Shown in pieces: positions 10,598-22,651 of a stretch of DNA of 60,596 nt (position 1 is its first letter; each line of letters begins with the position of its first letter). The stretch covers positions 1 through 60,596 of the forward strand of contig JBAZKO010000003.1 in assembly GCA_041650775.1 (NCBI GenBank), written 5' to 3'. Both the position numbers and the translations under genes were made by a program. Source of the stretch: Patescibacteria group bacterium. GTDB taxonomy: Bacteria > Patescibacteriota > Patescibacteriia > Patescibacteriales > UBA12465. A model generated the notes under the pieces. It was not told the DNA's origin. It did no database searches and was given only the letters and a program-made list of their open reading frames with translations.

Positions 10598-10933
10598 ATG
10601 AAGAATGATATCCACCCTAAATATTACCCGGACTGTAAGGTTTCTTGCGTTTGCGGCAATACTTTTTTAACCGGCTCCACCGAACCGGAAATTAAGGTTG
10701 AACTTTGCTCCGCCTGCCATCCTTTCTACACCGGTAAACAAAAGTTAGTCGATACGGCTCGCCGAGTCGAGAAATTCGAAGCCAAAGTAAAAGCCAAAGA
10801 CAGCGCCTCTAAAGATAAAAAAGGCAAGAAGGTAAAACGGGCGGCCCGGGCGGAAATAAGATCTAAGAAAGAAGTCGTAGTCAAAACCAAAGATTTGAAA
10901 AGGATTAGCCAGGTAAAATTAAATAAAAAATAG
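10598..10933 (+). CDS. rpmE: 50S ribosomal protein L31 (Zn-binding type) with Lys-rich C-terminal extension
   Basis: [27 protein letters not shown]. Confidence 0.96.
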
Positions 10934-10940
10934 CTTCCTT

Positions 10941-11029
10941 AAAGCAACCGGCTTAATTATTAGGCATATCCATGCTAAAATAATTATATTGGCGCCGCTC
11001 CGGCCGCGCCAGTTCCCCGGTTGCTTTTT
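10941..11029 (+). terminator. Branched terminator-like structure after rpmE
   Basis: 11-bp stem AAAGCAACCGG/CCGGTTGCTTT enclosing two hairpins, ending in a T5 run. Confidence 0.55.
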
Positions 11030-11034
11030 GTTAT

Positions 11035-11181
11035 AAAAAAAGGGCCAAAATCAATATGCCCAGGCGCAATAAAGATAAACGGAGGTAAAAAATGCGCCTC
11101 TGACATCAAAGCCAACCCTAAAGCTTTGTTTGATTTTGACCCAAAATCTTGAGTCCGTCTTTGGTAGACAGACTAACTATT
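11035..11181 (-). ncRNA. Candidate small RNA with anti-SD (ACCUCC) loop
   Basis: Minus-strand promoter, 5' hairpin, 13-bp closing stem with two arms, and U7 tail. Three plus-strand C.A mismatches read as G.U pairs on the minus strand. Confidence 0.55.
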
Positions 11182-11187
11182 ATAATC

Positions 11188-11216
11188 ATATTAATATATT
11201 TTTAGAATAACGTCAA
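11188..11216 (-). promoter_or_regulatory. sigma70-type promoter divergent from prfA
   Basis: TTGACG-N17-TAATAT on the minus strand. Confidence 0.55.
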
Positions 11217-11217
11217 T

Positions 11218-12273
11218 ATGTACGAAGAAATAAAATTACGATTCGCCGAATTAGAGAAAAAGCTGATGGATCCGGCAATAATCGGCAATCAGAAAGAAGT
11301 GATTAAATTATCCCAGGAACACGCCGGCCTGAAGAAGGCTATATCCTTGATTTTCGAGTTGGAAAAAACCGATTCGCTAATAAAAGATAATAATGAAATA
11401 ATTTCCTCGGAGCATGAAGGCGAATTGCGGACAATGGCTCAGGAAGAACTGGCGGGCTTGAAGGAAAAAGCGGCTAAACTTGCCGAAGAGTTAGAAGAAG
11501 AAATCCATCCCGCTAACCCGAATGATAAACGAAACGCCATCTTAGAAATTCGCGCCGGTGCGGGCGGCGACGAAGCAGCGATTTTCGCCGGTGACCTCTT
11601 TCGGATGTATGCTCGTTACTGCGAACGCCGCGGCCTGAAATTAAGCCTGATAGATGCCAGCGTCATCGGCATTGGCGGTTATAAAGAAGTCATCTTTGAG
11701 GTTAAGGGTGAAGGCGCTTACGGTCTGTTAAAATTCGAAGCTGGCACGCACCGCGTCCAGCGTGTTCCGGAAACGGAAAAACAGGGTCGGGTCCATACTT
11801 CTACCGCCACGGTCGTCGTTCTGCCGGAAGCGGAAGAAGTCGATATTGAAATCAAGCCGGGCGATGTCAGAATCGACACTTTCTGTTCCAGCGGTCCGGG
11901 CGGCCAAAGCGTTAATACCACTTATTCGGCCGTTCGTCTGGTTCATATTCCGACCGGCGTTACCGTTAGTTCACAAACCGAACGTTCCCAGCATCAAAAT
12001 AAAGAAAGAGCTTTTCAGGTACTCCGTTCTCGTCTCTTGGCGAAACAGGAGGAAGATCGCCGTCTCGCCTCGTCCACGGCTCACCAAACACAGGTCGGCG
12101 CCGGCGATCGCTCGGATAAAATCCGAACTTATAATTTCCCGCAGGATCGCGTCACTGATCACCGTATCAATGTCTCCTGGCATAGCATCACGAGAATAAT
12201 GGATGGAGAAATAAATGAAATCGTGAGTGAATTAAGAAAAGCGGAAAGGGCGGAAATGAAAGAAAAAAAATAA
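11218..12273 (+). CDS. prfA: Peptide chain release factor 1
   Basis: PxT recognition motif (RVPETE), GGQ motif (SGPGGQ), IRTYNFPQDRVTDHR. Confidence 0.97.
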   Translation: MYEEIKLRFAELEKKLMDPAIIGNQKEVIKLSQEHAGLKKAISLIFELEKTDSLIKDNNEIISSEHEGELRTMAQEELAGLKEKAAKLAEELEEEIHPANPNDKRNAILEIRAGAGGDEAAIFAGDLFRMYARYCERRGLKLSLIDASVIGIGGYKEVIFEVKGEGAYGLLKFEAGTHRVQRVPETEKQGRVHTSTATVVVLPEAEEVDIEIKPGDVRIDTFCSSGPGGQSVNTTYSAVRLVHIPTGVTVSSQTERSQHQNKERAFQVLRSRLLAKQEEDRRLASSTAHQTQVGAGDRSDKIRTYNFPQDRVTDHRINVSWHSITRIMDGEINEIVSELRKAERAEMKEKK

Positions 12274-12274
12274 A

Positions 12275-13213
12275 ATGCCAAGGCAAACAATAAAAAAGAC
12301 TAAAATATTAAATCTTAGCCAAATTATAGGCGCTTCTTCCCTTTCCCGGCCGGAAACCGAAATCCTAATAGCTTTTATCTTAAAAAAAACGCGCGAGTTT
12401 CTCCTGACTCATCCGGAAACTAAAATTACACCGGCCGTCGCCCGCCGCTTCCGCGCTCTCGAAAAAAAACGCCTGGCCGCTTGGCCGATTGCTTATCTGA
12501 CCGGACAAAAAGAATTTTACGGTCTAAATTTTAAAGTCAGCCCGGCGACGCTCGTGCCGCGGCCGGAAACCGAAATGATTGTGGAAAAAATCGTCGACCT
12601 GGCTAAATCACTGATACCGAAAAAACTGAGCGATATGAATGGCACCCGGCGCCCGTTAGTCATTGATCTCGGTACCGGCTCCGGAGCGATTATCATCGCC
12701 GTCGCTTCCGAACTAAAACGCCTCTTCCCCGCCAGCTATAAAAATATAAAATTTTCCGCGATTGATATCTCGGCTGACGCTTTAAAAGTGGCGAAACAAA
12801 ATGCCGCGGCGCATAAATTAAACAAAAAAATCAAGTTCTATCGTGGTGACCTACTTCTACCTCTTAAAAAATTGACCGCCGGGCGACCAATCTTCAAGGC
12901 CGACTCCCGTCTGATTATCAGCGCCAATCTTCCTTATTTGACCCCCGAACAAATAAAAAAATCGCCCAGCATCAAGCGCGAACCAAAACTCGCTCTTGAC
13001 GGCGGCGCGGATGGCTTAAAATATTACCAGGCGCTTTTTAAACAGCTATCCCAGACCGCTTTCCGTTCGGCAACGGTCTTGTGCGAAATTGATCCGGGGC
13101 AAGTCAAGAACATGAGGACTCTCGTGGTCAAATACTTCCCCGCCGCTCCAAACAGCCTCCAAACCGATTTATCCGGACAAGACAGATTATTCGTGCTAGA
13201 GTTAACGAGATAA
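12275..13213 (+). CDS. prmC: Release factor glutamine methyltransferase (HemK)
   Basis: PIAYLTG.KEFYG, LVPRPETE, DLGTGSGAI and ANLPY motifs; directly after prfA. Confidence 0.95.
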   Translation: MPRQTIKKTKILNLSQIIGASSLSRPETEILIAFILKKTREFLLTHPETKITPAVARRFRALEKKRLAAWPIAYLTGQKEFYGLNFKVSPATLVPRPETEMIVEKIVDLAKSLIPKKLSDMNGTRRPLVIDLGTGSGAIIIAVASELKRLFPASYKNIKFSAIDISADALKVAKQNAAAHKLNKKIKFYRGDLLLPLKKLTAGRPIFKADSRLIISANLPYLTPEQIKKSPSIKREPKLALDGGADGLKYYQALFKQLSQTAFRSATVLCEIDPGQVKNMRTLVVKYFPAAPNSLQTDLSGQDRLFVLELTR

Positions 13214-22438: not shown

Positions 22439-22467
22439 TTGACAACTTTTTATTAATTTCCTATAAT
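22439..22467 (+). promoter_or_regulatory. Perfect-consensus sigma70 promoter, back-to-back with the dnaE promoter
   Basis: TTGACA-N17-TATAAT on plus; TTGCTA-N17-TAAAAT on minus (22409-22437) faces dnaE. Confidence 0.85.
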
Positions 22468-22473
22468 ATAATC

Positions 22474-22651
22474 AAGTTCTTTTTAATAATTCTCATAGGA
22501 TTCATAGGTTTATTTTTTAGGGTTAATTCTTAGGGTTTAGTTTTTTAGAGTTAGTAATTAGGTTTTAGTGGTTAAGTTTTTAATGATTGGTTAGTTAGTT
22601 TATGTTATGGGTTTGGTTCGGAGGCTTCTAATGACGAAGCCTCCTTTTTTT
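22474..22651 (+). ncRNA. Candidate UAG-rich, C-depleted small RNA
   Basis: Lies between a consensus promoter and an intrinsic terminator; no ORF over 10 codons before the terminator; 11 TAG in 22496-22598; no C in 22530-22618. Confidence 0.6.
22620..22651 (+). terminator. Intrinsic terminator of the candidate sRNA
   Basis: GGAGGCTTC-N7-GAAGCCTCC-T7. Confidence 0.85.

Follow-up and report, generated by a model that had tools for sequence, protein, structure and literature searches.

A candidate family of fast-evolving small RNAs with a CCUCC loop, convergent with the release factor 1 gene in Candidatus Falkowbacteria

INTRODUCTION

The cuckoo RNAs of Alphaproteobacteria (RSs0680/CcsR, alpha-r14 and NfeR1) are built from two to four adjacent hairpins, each of which carries CCUCCUCCC in its loop; their stems and architecture are so variable that sequence conservation ends beyond the genus, and their neighbourhood is often preserved (PMC4615179). 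The cia-dependent small RNAs (csRNAs) of Streptococcus, about 90-150 nt in length and expressed from CiaR-dependent promoters, contain anti-Shine-Dalgarno (anti-SD) and anti-AUG sequences in an unpaired linker between two stem-loops and are proposed to block translation initiation (PMC3091779). Here we describe a candidate small RNA (sRNA) gene on the minus strand between rpmE, which encodes ribosomal protein L31, and prfA, which encodes release factor 1 (RF1). It lies in a 60,596-nt stretch of DNA (positions 1 to 60,596 of contig JBAZKO010000003.1, assembly GCA_041650775.1) from a bacterium of the Candidatus Falkowbacteria / Patescibacteria lineage, part of the candidate phyla radiation (CPR). 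We refer to the whole stretch as the window and to the putative sRNA gene as the cassette. The host genome (G000) comprises 886 kb in 26 contigs and is 97% complete.

RsaE/RoxS of Firmicutes and the 6C RNAs of Actinobacteria bind G-rich ribosome-binding sites through C-rich motifs that are left unpaired. These motifs are CCCC or UCCC runs present in several copies, and the RNAs belong to curated Rfam families. CopA and RNAI are the classical loop-loop antisense RNAs. Another cis-encoded antisense RNA, art200 of IS200, lies opposite a 5' untranslated region (UTR) (PMC4513863). Regulatory RNAs of CPR bacteria are essentially uncharted, and a full-text literature search found no paper describing sRNAs in this group.

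RESULTS

A promoter-to-terminator unit is predicted on the minus strand of the rpmE-prfA spacer

A preliminary description of the window, made from its sequence alone, had proposed an unannotated minus-strand sRNA between rpmE and prfA. Our comparison with related loci supports a predicted non-coding transcription unit in this 284-nt spacer, and the cassette is very probably a real sRNA gene. A promoter scan recovered the sequence TTGACG-N17-TAATAT that had been pointed out on the minus strand (11216-11188). The -35 box TTGACG occupies 11211-11216 and starts 1 nt from the prfA start codon (CAT/ATTGAC on the minus strand), and a 17-nt spacer separates it from the -10 box TAATAT at 11188-11193. 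With the transcription start site estimated at 7 nt past the -10 box and the 3' end placed within a run of seven U residues, the promoter and terminator would delimit a non-coding minus-strand transcript of about 147 nt (11035-11181). The cassette thus has its own predicted promoter, as an independent sRNA gene should.

The minimum free energy (MFE) fold of the minus strand of 11190-11030 reproduced the previously described anatomy base for base. A 5' hairpin, AGUCUGUCU-ACCAA-AGACGGACU (11152-11174), is followed by a 13-bp closing helix, in which the 5' half GGGUCAAAAUCAA (11130-11142), identical in sequence in the near strain L109, pairs with the 3' half UUGAUUUUGGCCC (11042-11054). This helix encloses two arms. 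The short arm, CAAAGCU/GGCUUUG with the loop UUAGGGUU (11107-11128), differs between strains. The long arm, AUGUC..GGCGCAU / UGCGCC.GGCAU (11056-11106), is capped by the 24-nt loop reported to contain ACCUCC, which is present as UUUUUUACCUCCGUUUAUCUUUAU; the anti-SD-like core CCUCC at 11081-11085 of this apical loop has a probability of 0.98 of being unpaired. The sRNA is predicted to terminate intrinsically at the closing helix together with the U7 tract at 11035-11041.

A GC-based 13-bp helix directly before U7 is what a Rho-independent terminator requires, although its form is atypical. A simple terminator scan requiring a loop of 3-8 nt found no site at the cassette because the helix before U7 closes a two-arm domain of 88 nt (closing pairs included). 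The minus-strand fold of 11190-11030 had an energy of -52.9 kcal/mol (z = -5.85), which none of 200 shuffles equalled, compared with -37.3 kcal/mol (z = -3.3) for the plus strand of the same region; z for the predicted transcript was -5.6 to -5.9. It had also been argued that G.U pairs on the minus strand that become C.A mismatches on the plus strand point to the minus strand. The argument stands with a different count, as we computed four such pairs rather than three.

The cassette recurs at 13 other loci of the genus

A BLAST-level DNA search of 60 relatives returned AT-rich promoter fragments only, and after this failure of DNA similarity the family members were located by rpmE-prfA synteny, which was found in all 20 of the genus relatives fetched. 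In most relatives the spacer is about 100-130 nt long, comprising 25-35 nt in addition to a conserved rpmE terminator hairpin; in a minority it measures 200-410 nt. Fourteen loci contain a cassette: the window, L109 (a near strain, RF1 98% identical), G032 (= L029), G064, G031 (= L034), G021, G079 and the metagenome contigs L111, L114, L117, L119, L122, L040 and L035.

A minus-strand promoter of the form TTGAC(T)-N16/17-(TG)TAnnnT is present at all 14 loci. TTGAC lies exactly 1 nt from the prfA start codon in 13 of them and 38 nt farther in L035, and the -10 box is of the extended type (TGnTAnnnT) in 11. The bodies that follow are 84-281 nt long and show almost no sequence conservation; a MAFFT alignment (44% identity) left the closing helices out of register. 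All 14 bodies are nevertheless more structured than their shuffles (z from -2.2 to -6.7), and in 12 the minus strand is the better-folding one. A U-tract comes right after a GC-based closing or terminal helix in 11 members, and the remaining three run into the bidirectional rpmE terminator; a GC-based closing helix analogous to that of the window precedes the U-tract in nine. Because promoter geometry, structured body and U-tract recur at 13 loci besides the window, the features seen in the window are more than chance.

A hexamer near the 5' end, GUUCAU, was found in six of the 13 non-redundant bodies (G064, L117, L119, L035, G021 and L029; 0.47 expected) and not in the window. Its plus-strand form, ATGAAC, begins mini-open reading frames (ORFs) of 2-7 codons with mixed stops (TGA, TAA and TAG).

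CCUCC is enriched and exposed on the sRNA strand

In an unbiased k-mer count of the 13 non-redundant bodies against 300 dinucleotide-preserving shuffles, CCTCC was the top enriched 5-mer. It occurred in eight bodies compared with 1.63 in the shuffles, and none of the 300 shuffles reached eight. GGAGG was present on the minus strand of none of the 13 bodies. In seven members CCUCC lies in an apical loop with a probability of 0.8-1.0 of being unpaired and typically has U residues ahead of it, as in the loops UUUUUUACCUCCG, UUUUUCCUCCAG, GUUCCUCCAAUU and AAUUUCCUCCUAUAC. Enrichment, strand bias and open loops across the family thus bear out the anti-SD-like loop first noticed in the window. The comparison supports the CCUCC loop as a selected feature and no coincidence.

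We also considered TTTAGGGTT as a defining motif and rejected it. It is found in three members and in a second unit at 22439-22651 of the window, its genome-wide count is 25 against 33 expected, and it takes up different structural places.

Bodies turn over rapidly and the distribution is patchy

At the DNA level, prfA of the window and prfA of L109 are 93% identical. The two cassettes have in common the promoter, 5' hairpin, closing helix and 13-nt UUUUUUACCUCCG, and other parts of the arms are replaced, with insertions and deletions; the 5' hairpin of L109 has G.U/A-U swaps at two positions. The 60 nt at 11054-11113 correspond to 82 unrelated nt between preserved flanks, and the same allele as in L109 is present in contigs of metagenome runs X2-X4. 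The co-occurring strain that has this 82-nt replacement still contains UUUUUUACCUCCG. The exchange of 60 for 82 nt points to very fast turnover of, or recombination inside, the RNA gene.

Six of the 69 species genomes of the genus have the cassette (G000, G021, G031, G032, G064 and G079), and it was not seen in loci with RF1 identity below 66%. On an RF1 tree this distribution needs seven changes, of which at least three are forced by well-supported branches. The cassette is therefore either old and often lost, or exchanged by recombination between its conserved flanks.

Fast turnover even between strains, the patchy distribution on the prfA tree and the fact that most species do without the cassette would also be expected of a promoter-plus-terminator unit that has no function at the RNA level. 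In such a unit the act of transcription itself would matter, through a roadblock or interference at prfA or through supercoiling, or the unit would be a decaying or neutral insert. We consider this improbable. All of the bodies stay significantly structured, the replacement of adjacent arms spares the CCUCC loop and the closing helix, and a neutral insert would not retain a near-consensus promoter in 14 diverged lineages.

The cassette is non-coding, unmatched and single copy

A search against Rfam had been suggested for the region, and no known family matches: searches of the region at E <= 10, of the whole window at the gathering score and of the 13 related loci returned noise only (E > 0.1). 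An ORF of 40/43 codons does exist on the minus strand (11106/11115-10984), and the preliminary description had named its 40-codon form as a rival. On a rival explanation of this type the transcript would be the mRNA of a small protein encoded there or in another micro-ORF. The 40/43-codon ORF crosses the U7 terminator and has no counterpart in the other members, not even in L109, and no ORF or peptide on either strand is common to the 14 bodies. The comparison thus leaves a small-protein mRNA extremely unlikely, and we regard that explanation as effectively refuted by the sequences compared.

A repeat or mobile element was ruled out, as the cassette is single copy in G000, and a housekeeping RNA was ruled out, as most relatives do not have the cassette. 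The family appears to be a fast-evolving, previously undescribed sRNA family of Candidatus Falkowbacteria.

Few potential trans targets are predicted

The preliminary description had suggested a trans-acting translation regulator or a mimic of the 16S tail, which was pure inference. We consider here what the genomes say of a purely trans-acting anti-SD sRNA, whose CCUCC loop would block GGAGG-led mRNAs and whose position at prfA would be inherited synteny only. The enrichment of CCUCC is specific, confined to one strand and located in open loops, none of which is required by antisense pairing alone, and known sRNAs act in this manner (cuckoo/RSs0680, PMC4615179; csRNAs, PMC3091779). The 16S 3' end of congeners (G005, G007 and G028; L189-L191) is the canonical ...GGAUCACCUCCUUUCU with the anti-SD ...CACCUCCUUUCU kept, so SD pairing would still be meaningful. 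In addition, a few genes of G000 have a strong GGAGG 4-8 nt before ATG, one of which, at position 63 of contig C20, is type IV pilin-like; several others encode small membrane or secreted proteins.

Other results argue against a purely trans-acting RNA. GGAGG was found at -20 to -4 of 12 of the 893 long ORFs of G000 compared with four in a control window, and GGAG, GAGG and AGGA were not enriched ahead of these ORFs; SD use in G000 thus appears to be close to nil. Duplex prediction of the loop against G000 gave no outstanding trans target at a start codon. The best partner was, trivially, the opposite strand of its own locus (-34.5 kcal/mol, compared with -21.8 kcal/mol or weaker elsewhere). 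A search of G000 for paralogs, as CCUCC-loop hairpins, yielded terminators and rRNA or tRNA pieces only. When the 63 congeners that lack the cassette at prfA were searched for an sRNA elsewhere by a promoter-plus-CCUCC pattern, the recurrent hits were the coding start of rpmA (..TCA ACC TCC..) and a conserved coding sequence. Hfq, CsrA and bS21 were not found in G000 by tblastn with E. coli queries; for Hfq and CsrA this is weak evidence against action in trans. On balance we consider a purely trans-acting sRNA a serious alternative, if a rather unlikely one.

Specific trans candidates were also rejected. Masking of a prfB frameshift SD does not apply, as prfB (RF2, C11:10048-11150, minus strand) is a single open frame with no CUU UGA and no internal SD. 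The bS21 gene, rpsU, was not found and so could not serve as an SD-led target, and the weak tblastn hit for CsrA is the end of a glycosyltransferase gene. The Rfam model did not find a 16S rRNA gene in G000, where the sole trace is a small 16S-like fragment that opens contig C16.

prfA is most likely transcribed through the cassette

Both rpmE (10598-10933, plus strand) and prfA (11218-12273, plus strand, with prmC next at 12275) were inspected for an SD sequence, and neither start has one. The prfA-prmC gaps of the loci compared were also examined for a C-rich-loop sRNA; none was found there, the longer gaps being occupied by small genes on the opposite strand or resulting from mis-called starts. 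The rpmE terminator hairpin (AAAGCAACCGG ... CCGGUUGCUUUUU; 10941-11029, plus strand) is conserved across the genus, with an extra GC-rich sub-hairpin in the window (about 10990-11012) that relatives do not have. Its 3' half contains TGCTAAAAT (10973-10981, plus strand), an extended -10-like motif that is kept and that we take as a putative distal prfA promoter. Plus-strand motifs of the TGnTAnAAT type were found in 34 of 54 related spacers, including 13 of the 14 cassette loci. Their distance to the prfA ATG is 32-70 nt in most short spacers, compared with 147-364 nt in the cassette loci. A plus-strand promoter-like site between the sRNA gene and ATG was found in two of the 14 members, compared with 3.7 expected from shuffles, one of the two being TAGACA-16-CATATT in the window. 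As the distal motif is kept and no proximal promoter is conserved, prfA is most likely transcribed through the cassette. The sRNA would then be convergent with the prfA transcript and fully complementary to its leader over about 147 nt.

In the window and all related spacers (L009-L028, L029-L135) a long composite hairpin forms the rpmE terminator, and its inner stem covaries, e.g. TAATTATT/AATAATTA versus TAATCATT/AATGATTA. Transcripts begun at the -10 motif embedded in this terminator would contain half of the hairpin only.

If a conserved distal promoter places cassette sequence in the prfA mRNA, the plus strand could itself be the functional one. The cassette would in that case specify a structured 5' UTR with a GGAGG standby or decoy site or a mini-ORF, and the minus-strand promoter would be incidental. 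The plus strand does fold (z = -3.3), two members fold slightly better on this strand, and 6 nt separate GGAGG from ATG CGC CTC TGA in the window. However, this MRL* mini-ORF is a feature of the window only and is missing from L109, the 98%-identical strain, and a start codon follows the plus-strand GGAGG in only three of 12 cases. Moreover, no part of the cassette is better conserved than the minus-strand promoter, U-tracts follow helices on the minus strand only, 12 of the 14 members fold better on that strand, and most relatives have a short spacer (about 100 nt) without such a leader. The conserved sense-strand structure that a cis-regulatory leader or riboswitch should have is absent from most relatives, and we consider a functional plus-strand leader very unlikely.

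Other non-coding units

A second non-coding promoter-to-terminator unit was seen on the plus strand of the window at 22439-22651. It has a TTGACA-N17-TATAAT promoter, a C-poor body rich in UAGG/UUAGGGUU and a terminator, GGAGGCUUC...GAAGCCUCC followed by U7. The G032 cassette body shares its G/U-rich, UAGG-rich flavour, although the alignment is weak (z about 3). Upstream of rpmA (L27), more than 20 species of the genus (L231-L256) share a highly conserved promoter, TTGACAATT..CTTTTGTTATATT. Behind it comes a leader of some 70 nt that includes a hairpin (e.g. GCTAGTCTCTGGCTAGC) and is possibly a ribosomal-protein leader.

DISCUSSION

Our preferred explanation, held tentatively and at a little under an even chance, is that the sRNA controls RF1 expression as a cis-encoded antisense RNA. 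The -35 box has a fixed position, at a distance of 1 nt from the start of prfA; together with the convergent conserved distal promoter, this points at least as strongly to cis-antisense control as to action in trans, and we consider control of prfA in cis at least as likely. In this model, a strong sigma-70-type promoter would fire away from prfA toward rpmE, and the sRNA would terminate at a U-tract of its own, immediately short of the rpmE terminator. The prfA mRNA, originating from the extended -10 motif in the rpmE terminator or from rpmE read-through, would cross the sRNA gene, and its leader would carry the mirror-image hairpin with GGAGG in the loop. As a base-pairing regulator, the sRNA would nucleate pairing with a GGAGG tract through its open CCUCC loop, and the prfA leader is the one partner guaranteed by sequence. 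Loop-loop pairing would lead to a duplex on this leader, for which RNase III would be available (its gene was found in G000), with the CCUCC and GGAGG loops serving as a site of nucleation or of competition with ribosomes. Interference between the convergent promoters would add to duplex formation. The sRNA promoter is near consensus and its -35 box adjoins the prfA ATG, so that RNA polymerase bound there would act as a roadblock to transcription arriving at prfA. Some of the few SD-led mRNAs may well be additional targets in trans.

Several points weigh against this interpretation. Cis-antisense pairing needs no particular sequence and so leaves the recurrence of CCUCC unexplained; this specific recurrence implies that something reads CCUCC or GGAGG, either GGAGG-led mRNAs in trans or ribosomes on the leader. 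Exact CCUCC is missing from five of the 13 bodies, of which three have CUCC/CCUUC or pyrimidine-rich loops and two (G032 and G079) have neither. With about 37 nt between the predicted 5' end of the sRNA and the downstream prfA ATG, the start codon would stay outside the duplex. The distal prfA promoter was inferred from a conserved motif that also forms part of a conserved hairpin. The cassette is absent from prfA in 63 of the 69 species of the genus and is therefore dispensable. Finally, a search for public RNA runs holding the window or a related locus, including L122, found none.

In a CPR lineage that retains the 16S anti-SD and has nearly abandoned SD-led initiation, the two strands might form a dedicated switch. 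The GGAGG loop of the leader would be a distant standby or loading site, for which the convergent sRNA, mimicking the 16S tail, would be a competitor of ribosomes, as it would at the few other GGAGG-led mRNAs. Such a switch would tie the supply of RF1 to the SD-dependent part of the proteome; we consider it quite improbable.

The members of this family are the first sRNA candidates of a CPR lineage to be well delimited, with a defined promoter, predicted ends and a conserved loop. The cassette adjoins the gene of an essential translation factor in hosts that have reduced genomes, barely any SD use and no detectable Hfq. If confirmed, it would mean that cells as minimal as these retain RNA control of the anti-SD or antisense type, and the 284-bp spacer would be a simple clonable test case for the setting of RF1 levels.

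The cassette resembles art200 (PMC4513863) in specifying a short structured RNA opposite a leader, with its own promoter and terminator and with exposed loops that would face the mirror loops of the target. Unlike antisense RNAs of 5' UTRs, its overlap with the prfA mRNA is predicted from conserved motifs, the start codon would be uncovered, and one loop sequence, CCUCC, recurs across members. It also differs from RsaE/RoxS and the 6C RNAs, whose Rfam families it does not match. The csRNAs share with it a small size and an unpaired region complementary to the SD sequence. However, they combine anti-SD and anti-AUG sequences in a linker, whereas the cassette has CCUCC in an apical loop with no adjacent CAU and is preceded by a plain -35/extended -10 promoter.

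Closest in kind are the cuckoo RNAs, which like the cassette combine CCUCC-containing, anti-SD-like loops with very variable stems and a preserved neighbourhood. The curated Rfam models of the cuckoo RNAs gave no match to the cassette at the gathering score, and their repeated motif was not found: the window has one ACCUCCG loop, and only L034 approaches the cuckoo pattern (CCCUCCUCCUU). The cassette, found in a CPR phylum, usually has a single CCUCC loop in a domain closed by the terminator helix, and its gene is fixed at the prfA start codon and probably antisense to the prfA leader. As motif, number and placement of modules, model match and phylum all differ, the cassette is a member of neither the cuckoo nor the csRNA families. 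From its sequence features it appears to be a regulatory RNA of a kind already known, one that would involve no new principle.

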